Below, one piece after another: positions 46,648-54,040 of a stretch of DNA of 54,480 nt. This stretch comes from a phage. Below the pieces are notes generated by a model. It was not told the origin of the DNA. It did not search any database and was given only the letters and a program-made list of their open reading frames with translations. The position numbers and the translations under genes are program-made. Positions within the stretch are counted from its first letter, which is position 1; each line of letters starts with the position of its first letter. Location: NCBI GenBank assembly GCA_018865545.1, contig GCA_018865545.1_3633.2. The stretch is one strand, 5' to 3'.

Positions 46648-47538
46648 TTATTTACCTGTAGGTAATGTTACAAACGGGGCTTGTGCTCCACTAGTCATAT
46701 ACACAGGTGTTACACCATTCCATTTATTAATTGCTTCAAGCTGCATAATCTCTGGATTTTTACGCAGAGCAGCACCACGTAGTTCAATAGATTCTGCATC
46801 ACCTTTGGCAATCAAGATTTTAGCATCTGCTTCGCCTTGTGCTTGGAGTCGTTTAGACTCAGCCTCGCCACGAGCCGCCTCAATACGTTTCTGGGCTTCA
46901 GCTTTCACTTGCTGAATTTCGTTTTCACGAAGCAGTGCTTTTTGTGTCGCTTCGATTTTATCATTAATGGAAGCAGTCACCTTTGGCGGATACACAAGAT
47001 CGTCAGTATAAGAAAGTTTCACAAGCACAATACCAACAGGATCAAGTTTTTGTTTCAGATGCTTGGTTACGCTCTCAAGCAGTTGTGTTTTTCCATCACC
47101 AGTCAGTGTACCGATATCCATTGAACCAGCTTCTTTGATCAAAGCATCAGAGATATTCTGGCGAATGTTTACCTCTGTAATTTCTTGTACACCTTTACGG
47201 TACGTCTGGAAAATAGTCGTTACTTTAGAACGATCAACATAATATTCAACACCAATTTTCGCAGAAACTGTCATAGAGTCTTTTGTCTGGAAATTGAATG
47301 GTTGGTCATAGTTATGCAACTGGTTAAAAGTCGGGAACTGATAAATCTCTTCGTTCCAAGTCAGCCAGTACTTACCTACCCCAACCTCTTGTTGCTGGAC
47401 ACCTTTTTCATCACCGTACAGATCAACTTTAACGCCAACGTAACCTGCTGGAACGGTTGCACGCTCACAACCTGTGAGACCAATTGCAGAGACTGCAAGA
47501 ATACCTGCAAAAATAACTCGTTTAATAGATTTAAACAT
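46648..47538 (-). CDS. SPFH/band-7 (prohibitin-like) lipoprotein
   Basis: Lipobox-like LTGC near the N-terminus; C-terminal coiled coil EIQQVKAEAQKRIEAARGEAESKRLQAQGEADAKILIAKGDAES typical of band-7 proteins. Confidence 0.7.
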   Translation of the reverse strand: MFKSIKRVIFAGILAVSAIGLTGCERATVPAGYVGVKVDLYGDEKGVQQQEVGVGKYWLTWNEEIYQFPTFNQLHNYDQPFNFQTKDSMTVSAKIGVEYYVDRSKVTTIFQTYRKGVQEITEVNIRQNISDALIKEAGSMDIGTLTGDGKTQLLESVTKHLKQKLDPVGIVLVKLSYTDDLVYPPKVTASINDKIEATQKALLRENEIQQVKAEAQKRIEAARGEAESKRLQAQGEADAKILIAKGDAESIELRGAALRKNPEIMQLEAINKWNGVTPVYMTSGAQAPFVTLPTGK

Positions 47539-48361: not shown

Positions 48362-48389
48362 TTCCAAAACAAGCCCCTTATAAGGGGCT
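48362..48389 (-). terminator. rho-independent terminator
   Basis: On the minus strand, hairpin AGCCCCTTA/TAAGGGGCT followed by TTGTTTT. Confidence 0.5.
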
Positions 48390-48404: not shown

Positions 48405-49094
48405 TTACACTTTAATAATCGGTTCAACAAAGGTAATTGGTTTCATAATTTTACCATTACCATCCATAAAGGCAACACGTTCACCGACCTGAACATGGAT
48501 TACAGAATTATAGCGTCCTTTTGAACGGCGTTCAATCTCTTTGCATTCAAACTCCAACATCTCCAGTTCTTTATCCTTGTAGTCAGGATATTTAACAAGT
48601 AGTTGTGTGATTGTTGGGAACTTAGAGTCGTTAGAATTAAGAACCTCTTCCATATTATACCCAAGATTGATATCCAATTTATAGCATAAAGCCACAACTT
48701 GTTTCAAAATCTCAGCATAATCAGAGATTTTCAACTTATCTTTATGTACCAAGTCAAGCAAACTACCGATTTGCAACTCAACCGTGTCTGAGGGAACCAT
48801 GCATGACTCCCATTTTTCAGTGTCCCACTGCACCAAACGCAAAGCGTAAGAGCTTACGACAAAAAGATCACAGGCTGCATCAATAACCGCTGCCTTGTCG
48901 GATGATGATAAGGCTTCAATAAGCTCAGAAAGCTCCTCTTTAATAAGATTTGTTTGTAGTTTAATATCTGTTGACATTCCTCCACGACCAATCCTTGCTA
49001 CCTCATTCCATTTGGCAACACGATGACCATATGCAATCATGTTATCAGGCTTGCTCATGGTTTCAAGTGTGGAATACATATTTTTTAAATTCAT
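48405..49094 (-). CDS. MazG-like nucleotide pyrophosphohydrolase (tentative)
   Basis: IKEELSELIEAL...DAACDL resembles the MazG EExxE...ExxD motif. Confidence 0.4.
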   Translation of the reverse strand: MNLKNMYSTLETMSKPDNMIAYGHRVAKWNEVARIGRGGMSTDIKLQTNLIKEELSELIEALSSSDKAAVIDAACDLFVVSSYALRLVQWDTEKWESCMVPSDTVELQIGSLLDLVHKDKLKISDYAEILKQVVALCYKLDINLGYNMEEVLNSNDSKFPTITQLLVKYPDYKDKELEMLEFECKEIERRSKGRYNSVIHVQVGERVAFMDGNGKIMKPITFVEPIIKV

Positions 49095-49103
49095 CTCTTC
49101 TCC

Positions 49104-49475
49104 TTAATTTACTGCATCTGGTATATGATCACCATCTGGTTGATCACGAATTATTCTTAGAGGTAACAAAGCACCATTTTTTCCTGTGAACAGACATTTA
49201 TCTGCATAGCTACCATTCTTGTACCAAGAGTATGATGTATTAACTTTATAAGTCATACCATCAAACTGGCAAGCAACAGTGTTAATTATTGGCCTAATAA
49301 GACAAAATGTAAGGATACCAATAACAACAAACCATGCGATAATAATCTTGCGAATATTTGGTTTTACCCAATCAATAAAATCATCTAATTTATCCCGTCT
49401 GAACCTATATGCCAGATACACACATACAGAGAACAGTATAGTAGTCAGTAGAACGAACACCCAATACCAAATCAT
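49104..49475 (-). CDS. membrane protein
   Basis: ORF track; N-terminal and internal hydrophobic helices. Confidence 0.45.
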   Translation of the reverse strand: MIWYWVFVLLTTILFSVCVYLAYRFRRDKLDDFIDWVKPNIRKIIIAWFVVIGILTFCLIRPIINTVACQFDGMTYKVNTSYSWYKNGSYADKCLFTGKNGALLPLRIIRDQPDGDHIPDAVN

Positions 49476-49487
49476 AATTATTAACCT

Positions 49488-50777
49488 TTAATATATAGGA
49501 TCCCACGTCAAAGAATCTACCTCACGAACACATTTGCCAACAGGAAATTGCGGAACACCGTCATCGGTCCTTGCTTGGTATGTAAAAGTTATATACTTGC
49601 CGATAAGTTTTTTCATATTCTCTTGTGAGCGTTCTTCGTGTGTGCCTCTCATCTTACAGTTAAATTGTGTACCATCCTTCTCAGCACACAACAGGACACC
49701 TTCTCCATTCTTATCCTCAAAGGAATCAAGAACTCTGGCCTCACCATCCTGAAACAATTTCCACTTTTGAAGATCAGACGATCTTTGTCCAAACTCATAC
49801 TTTCCGTGAAAGTTCCTTATTACAACACCCTCATAACCTGCTTCCATAAACTCCTTGATGAGCATTTTAACACGATCCTCACCAGACACTATTGCTCCGT
49901 GCACCACTTTAATCAGGTTATAAGGCCATGTATATTCAGAGACTTTCTGTAAATTATTAAACCTACACTTGTTTGTGTCAGAAGACATCCATGGTGTGTC
50001 ATCTTCCGAAGGGATATCGAAAATATGATATTCTAAGTCTAAACTTGAATAACCACAATACTTATTAATATTTTTCTCTGGTTTCTTTGTGATAGGATGT
50101 TCTAACCCTTCGGAGTCTTTCCAAAATTCATCACCATTGTTAATTGCTTTTTCAAATCGCTTTATGTCTGATTGATAGTCTTTTTCTATCTCACACTCTA
50201 TCTCTTCTGGTGTTCTCCATTTCTTAGCCAAAGAGACTATTTTCTGGAGACTTAACCCATGAATATACAACTCACCATCAAACATTTTCAACCCTGTCTT
50301 TTTGGCTAGCTTAGACATCTGATCAAGCAATTGGCCTTGTACAGGATATGTTTTATTGCCACGACTATTAAACACAGGTACACCATCATCACCAACAAGA
50401 ACAAGTGCTCTGACACCATCGAGTTTTGGTTGAACATGCACAGGGTACACTAAAGAGCTTTTCCTTTTAATAGCATCATGTGCAAGCATTGGTGAGAAAT
50501 CTTGTGTTTTTGTAAGATCATCCTTTGATACACGATACCCAAGGCGTACTTGTTTTTCCCACTTAGATTTTGCCTCCAAAACAGCTTGTTCTGTATCAGT
50601 TGTCTCATTTTTCTTACCGATGTTTTTGGCAAAGCATTTTGTGCGTTTATACTGCATTTTACCGTTTTCTTTACCAAACTCAACAACAGTTTCTGATCCA
50701 TCTACCCACACATTCCACACTTGATATGTACCATCCCTGTTTATGGCGTACAGTGTTGGGAGGTTATTTTCAAGCAT
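49488..50777 (-). CDS. ATP-dependent DNA ligase
   Basis: Motif I KLDGVR, motif III FDGELYIHG, motif IV EGVVIRN, motif V DLQKWKLF; start set to ATG50777 behind GCGAGGT RBS. Confidence 0.7.
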   Translation of the reverse strand: MLENNLPTLYAINRDGTYQVWNVWVDGSETVVEFGKENGKMQYKRTKCFAKNIGKKNETTDTEQAVLEAKSKWEKQVRLGYRVSKDDLTKTQDFSPMLAHDAIKRKSSLVYPVHVQPKLDGVRALVLVGDDGVPVFNSRGNKTYPVQGQLLDQMSKLAKKTGLKMFDGELYIHGLSLQKIVSLAKKWRTPEEIECEIEKDYQSDIKRFEKAINNGDEFWKDSEGLEHPITKKPEKNINKYCGYSSLDLEYHIFDIPSEDDTPWMSSDTNKCRFNNLQKVSEYTWPYNLIKVVHGAIVSGEDRVKMLIKEFMEAGYEGVVIRNFHGKYEFGQRSSDLQKWKLFQDGEARVLDSFEDKNGEGVLLCAEKDGTQFNCKMRGTHEERSQENMKKLIGKYITFTYQARTDDGVPQFPVGKCVREVDSLTWDPIY

Positions 50778-51555
50778 TAAATACCTCGCTTGTGACAACA
50801 GATTTTCCTTCAAGGTGATTCTCTACCAACTCGATAAGTTTTTGGTTGCTGAATGCTTCAACTGCTCCACAGCGCATTTGGTACACACCATATTTATCAT
50901 ACTGCTCTTGTTCAAAGTAATTAATCGCTGGGTTTATTACAACGAGTTTAATACCTCGTTTTGCGATTGCATGTAGCAATTCCCAGTTAAAGTCGATAAC
51001 TTGGTTAGAGCAGCCAACCAGAAGTACAAGGTCTTGAGTATTCAAGTCATCAAGCATGGTAAACATGTCCTGATAAAGTGGTGCATTCTCACCGAAAAAT
51101 ACCACATTTGGCTTGCACCACCAGTAATCATCAGGATCAACAGCCGTATACCCAACATCAATCACACGCTTAGGAAACTCTTCACCATTCTGTACAACAA
51201 GCTCTTTTAGAAAACCATGCACATGGAGAATATCTTTCTTTTCAATGCCAGCGCGTTCAAGCAGATCGTCAACATTTGTTGTAAGATTACGTACTTGACC
51301 AGGATAACGCTTATACCATTCTGCAACACGCAGATGTGCCATGTTGGGATGGACAGTCTTCAATTCCTCACGACGTTTGTTATAAAATTCGTGTGTTTTG
51401 TGATAGAAATTGCCACGAAATGCATGAATATTACATACTTCTTCAAGATCATATTCGTCCCAGAGGGCTTTACCTGAAGAAGTATCTGTACGGAATGTAC
51501 GAATACCGCTTTCTGTTGACATACCTGCACCACTAATCACAAGTAATCGACGCAT
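50770..51555 (-). CDS. Sir2-family NAD-dependent deacetylase / ADP-ribosyltransferase
   Basis: LVISGAGMSTESGIRTFR matches the Sir2 GAGxSxxSGIPxFR motif. Confidence 0.75.
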   Translation of the reverse strand: MRRLLVISGAGMSTESGIRTFRTDTSSGKALWDEYDLEEVCNIHAFRGNFYHKTHEFYNKRREELKTVHPNMAHLRVAEWYKRYPGQVRNLTTNVDDLLERAGIEKKDILHVHGFLKELVVQNGEEFPKRVIDVGYTAVDPDDYWWCKPNVVFFGENAPLYQDMFTMLDDLNTQDLVLLVGCSNQVIDFNWELLHAIAKRGIKLVVINPAINYFEQEQYDKYGVYQMRCGAVEAFSNQKLIELVENHLEGKSVVTSEVFNA

Positions 51556-51563
51556 ATAACCAC

Positions 51564-51971
51564 CTATTGTAATTTTAAAGAGTTACGTAAACGTGCTTCT
51601 TGACGATCACGAATAAACTGCGGGACATCATGAATGCTTTCGTTACCATGATAATTTTCCACAACTACAGATGTTACATCATAGCAGTAGTTTTCTGCTA
51701 AGTCAAGATAAGGTTTCAACTCTTTCGCAGAAGTTGTTGTGTTTGAAACAATAATCTTTTCAACTTCATTCTGCATGTGGAGTTCTACTTTGTCACGACA
51801 CCATTGATGAGCTTTGTGGACATTTTCTTCTTTCCACTCATACACACCGTCTTCGGTGTAATGAAATTGGTCAGCTTCACACACAGGCCAACGACCATCA
51901 TCAGACAACTCTTTAGCAAGAGTTGATTTTCCTGACCCAGAGACACCACGTAAAATAAATAACTTTTTCAT
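51564..51971 (-). CDS. P-loop polynucleotide 5'-kinase-like protein
   Basis: MKKLFILRGVSGSGKSTLAKEL resembles the N-terminus of the T4 Pnk kinase domain. Confidence 0.55.
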   Translation of the reverse strand: MKKLFILRGVSGSGKSTLAKELSDDGRWPVCEADQFHYTEDGVYEWKEENVHKAHQWCRDKVELHMQNEVEKIIVSNTTTSAKELKPYLDLAENYCYDVTSVVVENYHGNESIHDVPQFIRDRQEARLRNSLKLQ

Positions 51972-51981
51972 CAGTTTTCCT

Positions 51982-52314
51982 TTAGTATTGGTGGCGGTAT
52001 AATTTTATACCAAGAATATTTTCAAAATATTCTTTCGCCAACATGAATTTGTTCACAGCAGATGGGTTAGAGCTATGTACGTGAATTTCTTTAAGATTCA
52101 TAAACTTACCATCATGAAGCTCACGTTCAACATAGAGGAAAGCATCGTAACCTTCCTCATCAGAACCCAAATCATTATCAAAATGAATTGAATCAATGTC
52201 ACTATCACTCATAAATTTTAGTAATGAGTAAAAGCTAGAGAGATTCTTACACCATAAAGCATTAGGGTAGCCATAATCTACTGGATTTCGTAGATCATCC
52301 AACCATAGTTTCAA
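51982..52314 (-). CDS. hypothetical protein
   Basis: ORF track; between the kinase and RNA ligase genes. Confidence 0.45.
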   Translation of the reverse strand: MKLWLDDLRNPVDYGYPNALWCKNLSSFYSLLKFMSDSDIDSIHFDNDLGSDEEGYDAFLYVERELHDGKFMNLKEIHVHSSNPSAVNKFMLAKEYFENILGIKLYRHQY

Positions 52315-53243
52315 ATTGTGCCTCCGAAAAAATCCTCGATGATTTCACGACGGAATTGTTCATGCAAACATTCCCAATGTTCTTTAGAATAGTTATCACG
52401 CAAGTAGTTTAAAAGGTTATAATACTCTTCGTCAACTTTCTTCTTAGCTTCTTCTGGGTTTCCCCAAATCATATCCCACTTGTTCTTACCGCCACGCATC
52501 AAAAATTTCTTCGCCAAATAGTGTGGTGATTTTATCTTCAAGAGAAGATCTTGCTGTCCTGTAGCATCACGTACAACAAACCCTTCATGTTTGCATTCTT
52601 TAGACATTTTCAGGATGTCTGAAAAGTGCATATTTATGTAAATCTCTGGTCGTTTAAAACCGAACTCTTTTGCGATAAGATCCAGAGCTTTTTCACTAAG
52701 CATAGAAGTTAATTTGTTTTTATGAAATCGGACACCAATCAAATACACACCTGCCTTTTCTGGTACAATGTGTGGGTCTGAAGGAGCGCAAATCTCAAAG
52801 ATAAATGTTGTCTTTGGTTCTTCCACACATGATAACAACATTGGCAAATTAGTACATTCTTCCATGATCATACCTTTTGCAAGTTTTGCAAAATCGGAAT
52901 CTAAAGTTCCTGTTGTTGAAACAATTAGCTCACCATTGTATGAGCTTACTGCTGCCATGAAGCCATTAACTTTACGTGCTGCATTCACAACCATATCTTT
53001 TGGAAGATCAGTACCGTTCTCTAAATGATTGAAAATCTTTGTAAAAGGCCAAACAATAATGTTGTCATCACTGTCCACAACCATACCACGGCAATCAAGT
53101 AAGCGACTGTCTTGATCCCACAAGTTTTCCCAGAAAACTTTGTTACTGTATTTCAAAACAGACAAACCTTTAAACTCACCACTGGTATAAGTCTTCTTTT
53201 TGACAAGGCCTTTTGCTACTAAATCTTCAACATTAAATTTCAT
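52311..53243 (-). CDS. RNA ligase (covalent nucleotidyltransferase, KxNG type)
   Basis: Motif I KVNGF, motif III IFEIC, motif IV EGFVVRD, motif V LLLKIKSPHY; KxNG rather than KxDG favours an RNA ligase. Confidence 0.55.
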   Translation of the reverse strand: MKFNVEDLVAKGLVKKKTYTSGEFKGLSVLKYSNKVFWENLWDQDSRLLDCRGMVVDSDDNIIVWPFTKIFNHLENGTDLPKDMVVNAARKVNGFMAAVSSYNGELIVSTTGTLDSDFAKLAKGMIMEECTNLPMLLSCVEEPKTTFIFEICAPSDPHIVPEKAGVYLIGVRFHKNKLTSMLSEKALDLIAKEFGFKRPEIYINMHFSDILKMSKECKHEGFVVRDATGQQDLLLKIKSPHYLAKKFLMRGGKNKWDMIWGNPEEAKKKVDEEYYNLLNYLRDNYSKEHWECLHEQFRREIIEDFFGGTI

Positions 53244-53440
53244 TTGTCTTCACCGTCACTATTGTATGATTGTTTATTAAATGACTCAATTATACATGTT
53301 GATCGTCTTGCGTCAACAGATTGGCTTGTTAAATCTTTAGCAACAACCAGCTTTTCCACATCATCTTTTTTGATGGATCCGTAAGCACCAGAATCCATCA
53401 TGAAGAATATTTTATCTTCTGTTATCTTGTGTATTTTCAT
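53240..53440 (-). CDS. hypothetical protein
   Basis: ORF track. Confidence 0.35.
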   Translation of the reverse strand: MKIHKITEDKIFFMMDSGAYGSIKKDDVEKLVVAKDLTSQSVDARRSTCIIESFNKQSYNSDGEDK

Positions 53441-53461: not shown

Positions 53462-54040
53462 TCAATGCCCATCAGCAGTGAAAACGTCTTTTTCCATACA
53501 CATTTGGTATGCTTCTGGCAAACCCAAAATTCTCCCATGTACATCCCAACCAACATCAAGAATCCGTCCTTTCGCACTGTAAGATCCGTGGCAATGACCA
53601 TGCAAGAACACAGACCCATAGTGAGATTTATTCCACGCTGCAAACGGGTAATGGCTCATACAAATTTTTTGTTCATAATCGTTAAATTCGTAATAATCGC
53701 ACACATCATGACCACGTTTTTTGAATGTTTTAATCGCATCAAAATTGTCATGATTACCTTTGACAAGGACGATATGCCCAACAAGCTCATCAAGAATTTC
53801 TTCAAGTCTTTTAATAACTTGCTTGCCATGACCGAAACAGAAATCACCAAGCACAAAAGTCACAGTATCGGCATCTGCGCCGTGGTTAAATTTCACTGTG
53901 AGGTCTTGGTTCATTTGTTCAACGGTTTTGTACAAATCACCACGAAAACGTTTTGAACTCTCAAAGTTAAGGATGTTTTTATGCCAGTAATGTAAATCAG
54001 ATGTTACACGGTATTTGGTTCCCATTTCTCTCTCCCACAC
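53462..54040 (-). CDS. calcineurin-like metallophosphoesterase (Ser/Thr phosphatase family)
   Basis: Motifs SDLHY (DxH), LGDFCFGHG (GD), VKGNHD (GNHD), LHGHCH. Confidence 0.75.
   Translation of the reverse strand: MWEREMGTKYRVTSDLHYWHKNILNFESSKRFRGDLYKTVEQMNQDLTVKFNHGADADTVTFVLGDFCFGHGKQVIKRLEEILDELVGHIVLVKGNHDNFDAIKTFKKRGHDVCDYYEFNDYEQKICMSHYPFAAWNKSHYGSVFLHGHCHGSYSAKGRILDVGWDVHGRILGLPEAYQMCMEKDVFTADGH

Follow-up and report, generated by a model that had tools for sequence, protein, structure and literature searches.

A phage sirtuin of a glutamine-less, zinc-less clade lies within a block of RNA-end-healing and -sealing genes

The window analysed here is a stretch of phage DNA of 54,480 nucleotides. 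Over 4.7 kb it is 93.8% identical to Escherichia phage vB_EcoM_TH18 and to phages 18-1-2, 19-1-2 and 24-2-1 (Vequintavirinae). Its minus strand carries a Sir2 gene together with the following genes and features, given from the upstream to the downstream end:

53462–54040, minus strand: calcineurin-like metallophosphoesterase (Pfam Metallophos, E 6.8e-8; phrog_547; nearest PDB sequence 1XM7)
53240–53440, minus strand: 66-aa ORF inside the block, an annotated CDS in TH18
52311–53243, minus strand: Rnl1-type RNA ligase (Pfam RNA_lig_T4_1, E 7.4e-18; phrog_562)
51982–52314, minus strand: cREC, cyclic-phosphate processing receiver-like protein (Pfam PF20274, E 1.7e-15)
51564–51971, minus strand: P-loop kinase (Pfam AAA_33, E 1.4e-9; GSGKST P-loop), presumed polynucleotide 5'-kinase
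50770–51555, minus strand: Sir2/sirtuin gene, 261 aa, an ATG-to-TGA ORF and member of a phage-specific clade without the usual Gln and zinc site
50770–50777, minus strand: 8-nt overlap of the ligase start with the Sir2 stop, ATGCTTGA, read from the sequence
49488–50777, minus strand: ATP-dependent DNA ligase, 429 aa from its ATG (Pfam DNA_ligase_A_M and DNA_ligase_OB_2; phrog_114; KLDG motif)
49104–49475, minus strand: 123-aa predicted membrane protein with a hydrophobic N-terminus (phrog_8041, E 8.8e-38)
48405–49094, minus strand: MazG-like nucleotide pyrophosphohydrolase, last gene of the block (Pfam PRA-PH, E 6.9e-6; phrog_671)
48372–48389, minus strand: terminator-like GC hairpin and T-run (7-bp stem with 5 GC pairs, tail TGTTTTGG)

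An earlier note on this DNA had placed the Sir2 gene between an RNA repair module and a DNA ligase. The flanking genes are as it described, with the RNA-repair genes upstream on the minus strand and the DNA ligase downstream. Rather than separating two modules, the sirtuin gene lies inside a single compact, same-strand array of genes for enzymes that heal and seal RNA ends; the RNA ligase, cREC, kinase, MazG and phosphoesterase genes all lie on its strand within 3.3 kb. The hairpin lies 16 nt past the MazG stop and probably marks the transcription unit's 3' end. The kinase matches phrog_2071 and phrog_505 ("polynucleotide kinase"), and residues D6, D7, D46 and D48 are invariant in the cREC alignment. 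The RNA ligase scores far under the T4 RnlA equivalog cut-off, and an attempt to type it as T4 Rnl1-like or Trl1-like (2'-phosphate dependent) by PDB sequence search gave no significant match. The same search gave no significant match for the kinase and a single one for the metallophosphoesterase, an uncharacterised Aquifex protein. Pfam scans of the 66-aa ORF and of the 123-aa membrane protein returned no match.

At the junction with the DNA ligase, the ligase ATG (50777–50775) lies upstream of the Sir2 TGA (50772–50770). The 2-nt distance between stop and start reported in the earlier note is correct, but the ATG comes first, which gives an overlap of 8 nt between the genes. A GAGG Shine-Dalgarno sequence stands 6 nt ahead of this ATG, and the TTG at 50813 is merely the longest possible start of the ligase ORF. 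The TH18 annotation has the identical 8-nt overlap and Mydo has an overlap of 1 nt; in rV5, unlike in the window, TH18 and Mydo, the DNA ligase is not joined to the block in this way, and three genes stand between it and the sirtuin. The arrangement in the window would be compatible with translational coupling, as had been suggested.

The identification of the gene as a phage-encoded Sir2 holds by profile and by fold. Pfam SIR2 (PF02146) matches the ORF with E 2.9e-26 and 92.9 bits (cut-off 24) over profile positions 1–178 of 180, and phrog_2162 ("Sir2") matches with E 4.9e-102 and covers residues 1–255; both matches are far above chance level. The AlphaFold (AF2) model has a pLDDT of 90.4. 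Its best Foldseek match is E. coli CobB (1S5P, E 5e-18), with a TM score of 0.85 (normalised to CobB) at 27–28% identity, and the other fold matches are sirtuins only, with structures of the desuccinylase SIRT5 among the top ones. In both sequence and fold the deacylases CobB, Sir2-Af1 and SIRT5 are closest. An NCBIfam scan gave 7 matches, all to CobB-type models and all far under their curated cut-offs, the best being NF001753 with 116 bits against a cut-off of 243.

Homologues fall into more than 100 database clusters at 51–96% identity and into at least 1000 phage records, and deposited, annotated proteins are up to 96% identical to the sirtuin of the window. The homologues of T5, rV5, Mydo and phAPEC8 are 52–73% identical to it, and the phrog_2162 family includes T5 "cobB" (T5.102) and the proteins of rV5, Mydo and Serratia phage BF (AQW88637.1). 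When 185,579 species genomes were scanned for the clade-specific motifs, by exact-match patterns that divergent copies could escape, only 7 loci were found, at no more than 41% identity, so the clade has no evident cellular counterparts. Judged by sequence, it is found almost only in phages.

Alignment with CobB and within the clade located the following active-site features:

51490–51531, minus strand: NAD+-binding loop, codons G9–R22, GAGMSTESGIRTFR, aligned with the CobB loop GAGISAESGIRTFR
51370–51384, minus strand: Tyr/Arg anion-binding motif of CobB/SIRT5 type, codons Y58–R62 (YNKRR), aligned with CobB FYNARR
51268–51282, minus strand: TQNID motif with Gln replaced by Thr, codons T92–D96 (TTNVD)
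51214–51219, minus strand: catalytic His of the HG motif, codons H113–G114 (CAT GGT), aligned with CobB HG
51112–51216, minus strand: former zinc-ribbon module, residues 114–148, without Cys4 but with its strands retained

The phage sirtuin shares with CobB, SIRT5 and Sir2-Af1 the sirtuin fold, the GAGxSxxSGIxxFR loop, PNxAH, the N and D of the C-pocket, the HG catalytic His, the FYNxRR Tyr/Arg motif and (K/R)PxVVxFGE. Across 39 members of the close clade, G9, A10, G11, S16, G17, F21 and R22 of the NAD+ loop are invariant, as are Y58, R61 and R62; when jumbo-phage members are included, the invariant residues of the Tyr/Arg motif are F57, Y58, N59 and R62, so that R62 is the only one of the two arginines to be kept. 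H113 and G114 are invariant in both alignments. The catalytic His, which the earlier note had proposed to check, is thus in place, and the gene is not one that has lost its catalytic residues. It appears to encode a genuine, apparently active Sir2-type enzyme.

Unlike these class III-type deacylases, the phage sirtuin lacks the Zn-Cys4 site, has the Gln replaced, is restricted to phages and is linked to RNA-end enzymes. The zinc-binding cysteines, a second feature that was to be checked, are absent throughout the phage clade. Between HG and KPNV the window's protein has C147 alone, a position that varies between C, V and A among the 39 members, whereas DSSP still assigns strands to residues 114–122, 130–133 and 146–151 of the AF2 model. 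Members of the Gln-less clade have 0–2 cysteines in this region, and several Gln-retaining viral sirtuins have 4. A cellular protein, the CobB of Acinetobacter (L009), is likewise without the Cys4 site, and the loss of zinc therefore does not by itself exclude deacylase activity. In the TQNID motif, Asn94 and Asp96 are kept and T93, N94, V95 and D96 are invariant among the 39 close-clade members; the Gln position is occupied by Thr93 in the close clade and by Ala or Ser in the jumbo-phage members, whereas the cellular CobB in the alignment retains TQNID. Among 80 viral sirtuin loci from IMG/VR, 70 have T[T/A/S]N and the other 10 retain the Gln. The equivalent Q167 of SIRT2 is required for full activity, and its mutation lowers activity (PMC3603925). 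The loss throughout a clade of a residue needed in canonical SIRT2 points to altered chemistry.

The same 80 loci were used to measure the association with RNA-end enzymes, a partner being counted when it lay within 3 kb of the sirtuin. Partners were present beside 52 of the 70 Gln-less sirtuins and none of the 10 Gln-retaining ones; by clusters at 80% identity the figures were 18/32 and 0/7 (Fisher p = 0.0096). The linkage is confined to the Gln-less, zinc-less clade. It recurs in three phage lineages with different sets of partners. In the Vequintavirinae and Mydo these are an Rnl1-like ligase, cREC and the kinase; in T5-like phages a HAD_SAK_2 "Swiss Army Knife RNA repair" phosphatase lies 28–442 bp from the sirtuin; and in jumbo phages a 2H/Acb1-like phosphodiesterase and a Nudix-cREC fusion, whose Nudix is of the Nudt16-like "decapping" type, directly adjoin it. 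In related phages it is the RNA-end-processing genes, and not the DNA ligase, that the sirtuin gene moves with. Of the 80 loci, 23 have a NAMPT gene within 8 kb; in Mydo and Serratia phage BF such a gene adjoins the module.

Exactly this neighborhood was described by Iyer, Burroughs, Anantharaman and Aravind (Viruses 2022; PMC9503650, section 3.7.3). Their type 2 neighborhood contains a T4-like RNA ligase, cREC, a nucleotide kinase, MazG and a calcineurin-like phosphoesterase, and no macro domain adjoins it; they predicted that its sirtuin acts like Tpt1/KptA in the NAD+-dependent removal of RNA 2'-phosphates. With its full-length phrog_2162 match and type 2 neighborhood, the window's gene differs in nothing essential from their RNA-repair clade. 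The gene family and the hypothesis are therefore already known, and this gene adds no new biology. A search of the literature for experimental work on any phage sirtuin found none.

Following Iyer et al., our preferred though tentative reading is that the sirtuin may transfer ADP-ribose from NAD+ to a phosphate of damaged RNA. The target would most likely be the 2'-phosphate left after a 2',3'-cyclic phosphate end, the product of a host anticodon nuclease or toxin, has been opened and the break sealed. In the first step an RNA phosphate oxygen would attack C1'' of NAD+ and nicotinamide would leave; the proposed chemistry is that of Tpt1/KptA and would parallel step for step the sirtuin reaction on the carbonyl of acyl-lysine. 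The cREC, MazG or phosphoesterase protein might open the ring of the cyclic by-product or break it down, or make the 2'-phosphate at the outset, and in many such phages the supply of NAD+ would be secured by the nearby NAMPT. The conserved Tyr/Arg pair is the carboxylate-binding site of SIRT5 and CobB, and by analogy this pocket of the phage sirtuin would suit a phosphate. We are somewhat more hesitant about the broader proposal that the Gln-less, zinc-less clade might comprise the first sirtuins with RNA phosphate, not acyl-lysine, as their physiological substrate, and might be a non-homologous replacement of Tpt1/KptA. The sirtuin and Tpt1/KptA are alike in adjoining genes for an RNA ligase, a kinase and a cyclic phosphodiesterase (PMC9503650). 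They differ in that Tpt1/KptA, of the ART superfamily, has an unrelated fold and no sequence similarity to the sirtuin, whose only Pfam match is SIR2, so that the proposed analogy is one of function.

Several observations speak against an RNA phosphate as the substrate. No recognisable partner accompanies 18 of the 70 Gln-less sirtuins, in the T5-like loci no RNA ligase turned up within 8 kb, and viral cREC loci are mostly without a Sir2 gene within 6 kb. In phAPEC8-like phages the block is otherwise intact, DNA ligase included, and the Sir2 gene is about 30 kb away. Disguised RNA-repair genes were sought beside the phAPEC8 Sir2, where Pfam matched DUFs only and BLASTP against our query set returned nothing below E 0.25. 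The block of the window holds a T4-type set of kinase, metallophosphoesterase (a possible 3'-phosphatase or cyclic phosphodiesterase) and Rnl1-like ligase; no 2'-phosphate arises at any point of the T4-type pathway, which therefore has no obvious need for a 2'-phosphotransferase. The closeness of the sirtuin to genuine protein deacylases also counts against it.

If the published prediction is true, sirtuin chemistry extends to nucleic-acid phosphates, and a very common gene, found in at least 1000 sequenced phages, T5 and rV5 included, would be part of the counter-defence against host tRNA and anticodon nucleases. RNA repair would then be tied to the NAD+ arms race, and a yeast/plant-style (2'-phosphate-dependent) RNA repair pathway would be completed in phages, which would explain the NAD+ salvage genes that they carry. 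As the idea was put forward in 2022, novelty would lie in its confirmation.

The alternative that survives best is that the gene encodes a protein lysine deacylase resembling CobB and SIRT5, either a deacetylase or a desuccinylase, that remodels host or phage protein acylation early in infection, its position in the block reflecting co-expression only; the neighbouring ligases or the kinase would then be possible targets. The best sequence and fold matches and the sole NCBIfam matches favour such an enzyme, as do the kept catalytic His, NAD+ loop and acyl-carboxylate Tyr/Arg motif, the Cys4-less CobB of Acinetobacter and the unlinked sirtuin of phAPEC8-like phages. However, every NCBIfam deacylase model scores far under its cut-off, the glutamine on which SIRT2 activity depends is replaced clade-wide, and the sirtuin has been linked to RNA-end enzymes repeatedly and independently, with differing partners, which makes co-expression alone hard to accept. 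We regard a deacylase as rather unlikely; should it be one, phages would have in this gene a widespread means of altering the acylation of host proteins.

We consider it improbable that the protein is an NAD+ glycohydrolase or a small-molecule ADP-ribosyl transferase, which would lower host NAD+ or else produce or remove metabolites or signals derived from ADP-ribose, with cREC, Nudix and MazG acting on the products. An example would be the crippling of the host's NAD+-dependent ligase, with the phage relying on its own ATP-dependent enzyme, and in the window the sirtuin does overlap an ATP-dependent DNA ligase gene. This adjacency, however, is lineage-specific, and T5, itself a carrier of the sirtuin gene, has an NAD+-dependent DNA ligase. 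The NAMPT gene beside the sirtuin in many phages suggests that NAD+ is preserved, not destroyed. Manipulation of NAD+ was an idea of the earlier note, which had drawn an analogy to host defence SIR2 proteins, and soluble ADP-ribose derivatives are further predicted substrates of the neighbouring cREC, Nudix and 2H families (PMC9503650). The defence SIR2 NADases (ThsA, DSR1/2, SIR2-HerA and SIR2-pAgo) belong to the SIR2 superfamily and consume NAD+; the phage sirtuin differs in being a single-domain protein of 261 aa, without sensor or partner domains, from a lytic phage. The sequence lends this analogy no support: a scan of the sirtuin against PADLOC defence models gave no match at E ≤ 0.01 and its nearest relatives are deacylases, so we rejected a defence-type SIR2 identity. 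Sir2-less cREC loci were examined for a KptA/Tpt1 gene in place of the sirtuin. None was among the 25 Pfam families listed for 150 same-strand neighbours, which included Metallophos, RNA ligase, RlaP, RtcB, NADAR, ADP-ribosylglycohydrolase and NAD synthase; NADAR, ADP-ribosylglycohydrolase and NAD synthase favour a role in NAD+ or ADP-ribose metabolism.

A macromolecular ADP-ribosyltransferase or other RNA-directed deacylase, modifying for example host proteins, N-acetyl-aminoacyl-tRNA from GNAT toxins (by deacylation) or NAD-capped RNA, would fit the RNA-centred gene context, the "decapping" Nudix of jumbo phages and the protein ADP-ribosylation by a macro-linked sirtuin class (cited in PMC9503650), but it is very improbable, being speculative, with no specific sequence feature indicating such substrates and no macro domain or other ADP-ribose-removing partner among the Pfam-scanned block genes of the window.

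The window contains no tRNA genes and no NAMPT. A promoter scan found 28 sites against 26.5 expected from shuffling, a number not above expectation; one site matched the consensus at 12 of 12 positions.

The 261-aa open reading frame at 50770..51555 on the minus strand (ATG to TGA in the ORF listing) was borne out as the Sir2 gene that an earlier note had recognized. The Pfam SIR2 profile (PF02146) aligned to it from end to end at 92.9 bits (cut-off 24 bits; E 2.9e-26), and residues 1-255 matched phrog_2162, “Sir2 (NAD-dependent deacetylase)” (E 4.9e-102). The adjoining gene is indeed a DNA ligase, but it does not begin after the sirtuin stop, as the note had it. The ligase ATG is at 50777, upstream of the Sir2 TGA at 50772-50770, so the two genes share 8 nt (ATGCTTGA), with a GAGG Shine-Dalgarno sequence, read from the sequence, 6 nt 5' of the ligase ATG. 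An identical overlap is annotated in the record of Escherichia phage vB_EcoM_TH18 (Vequintavirinae). Over 4.7 kb, the Sir2 region shares 93.8% identity with TH18 and three sibling records, all of which annotate the gene as “NAD-dependent protein deacetylase of SIR2 family.”

From 54040 to 48405 every gene lies on the minus strand, separated by gaps of 8-21 nt or overlapping by 4-8 nt. Downstream of Sir2 come the ATP-dependent DNA ligase, a membrane protein and a MazG-like pyrophosphohydrolase. The other features of the block and its boundary are as follows.

53462-54040, minus strand: calcineurin-like phosphoesterase, beyond the 66-aa ORF (Pfam/PHROG matches)
53240-53440, minus strand: small 66-aa ORF inside the block, a CDS in TH18
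52311-53243, minus strand: Rnl1-type RNA ligase, upstream of Sir2 (Pfam/PHROG matches)
51982-52314, minus strand: cREC “cyclic-phosphate processing receiver” protein, upstream of Sir2 (Pfam/PHROG matches)
51564-51971, minus strand: P-loop AAA_33 kinase, upstream of Sir2 (Pfam/PHROG matches)
49104-49475, minus strand: 123-aa membrane protein inside the block, downstream of Sir2 (phrog_8041; a CDS in TH18)
48389-48372, minus strand: terminator-like hairpin right after the MazG stop
48136-48109, minus strand: 12/12 sigma-70 consensus, TTGACA-16-TATAAT, after the hairpin

Because these genes are co-directional and tightly packed, the sirtuin is internal to one operon-like block and belongs with the RNA-repair genes, rather than standing between two modules as first proposed. 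The hairpin and the sigma-70 site probably mark the boundary between two transcription units; promoter-like sites showed no overall enrichment in the window. Further along, 46648-47538 (minus strand) encodes a 296-aa SPFH/Band_7 protein (Pfam Band_7, E 4.8e-20) with a lipoprotein-like N-terminus, whose Proteus phage Mydo counterpart is annotated “lipoprotein” at the equivalent relative position. The window contains no tRNA genes.

Sirtuin neighborhoods in other phages were arranged as follows.

Mydo: gene order as in the window, with Sir2 followed by DNA ligase; NAMPT and PRPP synthetase just upstream of the block
rV5: RNA ligase, cREC and Sir2 contiguous; kinase and phosphoesterase divergent; DNA ligase three genes further
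T5: Sir2, then a HAD_SAK_2 phosphatase (“Swiss Army Knife RNA repair”), then two DUF7415 genes
Serratia phage BF and PBECO4 (jumbo phages): 2H/Acb1-like phosphodiesterase, small zinc-binding protein, Sir2, Nudix(Nudt16-like)-cREC

In every T5-like locus scanned, the sirtuin is accompanied by the tandem DUF7415 genes seen in T5 (L004, 6661-7482). In Serratia phage BF, a 71-aa “phage zinc binding domain” protein (PF23903; L005, 4738-4953) lies directly upstream of the zinc-less sirtuin. In rV5_ev147, ~3 kb separates the phosphoesterase end of the repair block from a phage tRNA cluster (Met, Thr, Tyr, Arg and one untyped; L002, 1-695). In several lineages the sirtuin has NAD+ salvage genes (NAMPT, PRPP synthetase, NMNAT/ADPR pyrophosphatase) no more than a few kb away: in Mydo (L003, 1-1133), in Serratia phage BF (L005, 812-3978), where NMNAT and NAMPT lie upstream of the sirtuin module, and in 23 of the 80 loci recovered by our IMG/VR scan for sirtuin relatives. 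None lies inside the window, and by synteny with Mydo, NAMPT is expected just past its 3' end.

In its treatment of viral sirtuins, the study of Iyer, Burroughs, Anantharaman and Aravind (Viruses 2022; PMC9503650) assigns most of them to a distinct clade and describes three neighborhood types. In the first, found in jumbo phages (Serratia BF, for example), the companions are 2H, Nudix, cREC and PIN; in the second, that of V5 and Mydo, they are a T4-like tRNA ligase, cREC, a kinase and MazG, joined in some cases by a calcineurin-like phosphoesterase; the third is represented by SP15, with a HAD “Swiss-army-knife” phosphatase. It proposes that the sirtuin is a KptA analogue, taking off 2'-phosphates. 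By that description, the window is an instance of the second type. Gene, family, neighborhood and leading hypothesis are thus all already in the literature and genome annotations. We found no experimental test of the proposal in the literature searched.

The nearest solved proteins by sequence were E. coli CobB (1S5P, E 7e-19), Sir2-Af1/Af2 and SIRT5. An AlphaFold2 model computed from 39 clade members was confident (pLDDT 90.4, pTM 0.88), and Foldseek ranked CobB first among its matches (E 5e-18; TM 0.85 normalised to CobB), followed by Sir2-Af1 and desuccinylase structures of SIRT5. Across the 39-member alignment, invariant residues comprised the NAD+ loop (G9, A10, G11, S16, G17, F21, R22), Y58, R61 and R62, P70, N71 and H74, T93, N94, V95 and D96, H113 and G114, K148-P149...F153-F154-E156, and G181, S183 and N208. 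To judge from these residues, the enzyme looks catalytically intact. Of the features flagged earlier for checking, the catalytic His is kept (H113, codon CAT at 51219-51217) and the zinc site is missing: in the alignment, a single Cys (C147), variable as C/V/A, lies between HG and KPNV. The model still predicts the three beta strands of what was once the zinc ribbon. Y58 and R61 align with FYNARR of CobB and correspond to the class III Tyr-x-x-Arg motif (SIRT5 Y102/R105), which holds succinyl- or malonyl-lysine by its carboxylate. The Gln of TQNID is replaced by Thr in the window sirtuin, T5, rV5, Mydo and phAPEC8, and by Ala or Ser in jumbo phages; unlike the phage clade, cellular CobB keeps it in two examples. 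Mutation of the corresponding Gln in SIRT2 (Q167A) is reported to reduce activity (PMC3603925).

Homologues were found by tblastn in at least 1000 phage records, among them several jumbo phages along with T5 (“cobb: putative transferase”), rV5, phAPEC8 and Mydo. In the protein database, one cluster reached 96% identity to the sirtuin and over 100 clusters reached 51% or more. Since a clade-specific motif scan of 185,579 species genomes yielded no more than seven loci, none above 41% identity, the Gln-less clade looks essentially phage-restricted.

Seventy of the 80 IMG/VR sirtuins were Gln-less, all with 0-2 Cys in the zinc region. We searched the loci's ORFs by phmmer with window, rV5, Mydo, T5, BF and PBECO4 proteins. 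A partner (cREC, Rnl1-like ligase, kinase, HAD_SAK, 2H or Nudix-cREC) lay within 3 kb of 52/70 Gln-less sirtuins and 0/10 Gln-retaining ones (several with four Cys), counts limited by the small query set and by phylogenetic redundancy among the loci. After clustering at 80% identity, the figures were 18/32 versus 0/7 (Fisher p = 0.0096).

Linkage is incomplete. In phAPEC8-like phages the neighbors of Sir2 are unrelated DUFs, and a cREC-centred scan showed that such contigs (IMG/VR pairs L048/L098, L046/L099, L049/L100 and L056/L111) carry cREC, phosphoesterase, RNA ligase, kinase, DNA ligase and MazG ~30 kb from the sirtuin. The ATP-dependent DNA ligase, retained even in this sirtuin-less block, is thus a constant component of “RNA repair” blocks across two phage subfamilies. 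At most other viral cREC loci no sirtuin lay within 6 kb; same-strand neighbors there include Metallophos, RNA ligase, RlaP, RtcB, NADAR, ADP-ribosylglycohydrolase and NAD synthase, and KptA is not among the families listed. We found cREC homologues in 376 phage records, versus at least 1000 for the sirtuin.

The best-supported reading, which we hold tentatively, is the published one, an NAD+-using sirtuin acting on a phosphate of damaged RNA. The enzyme would move ADP-ribose from NAD+ onto that phosphate. From established mechanisms, we infer that the sirtuin and Tpt1 reactions are formally parallel: in both, C1'' is attacked by an oxygen nucleophile as nicotinamide departs, and the acyl or phosphoryl centre is then attacked by the 2''-OH via a 1'',2''-cyclic species. 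The conserved Tyr/Arg anion pocket would suit phosphate, and a TQNID motif that lacks its Gln throughout the clade points to remodelling at the ribose and acceptor site. This reading is weakened because the block already holds the parts of a T4-type pathway, which never makes a 2'-phosphate, and because linkage to RNA-end genes is partial. Its main rival, somewhat less likely in our judgment, is a genuine CobB-like deacylase; CobB is the closest structural match, but NCBIfam deacylase models match far under their curated cut-offs (best 116 vs 243 bits). A NADase or small-molecule role is improbable, fitting poorly with the adjacent NAD+ salvage genes of related phages and with a sirtuin that has no similarity to defence SIR2 proteins and no match among PADLOC defence models, which leaves the earlier note's defence-NADase analogy unsupported and its interpretation as a whole supported in part.

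One compared contig, L009 (CAKLQF020000009.1, “Acinetobacter phage MD-2021a”), holds msbA, gcvH, cobB, putP, lrp and putA and looks like bacterial chromosome deposited as phage in error; TQNID is kept in its CobB, which has a single Cys in the zinc region.
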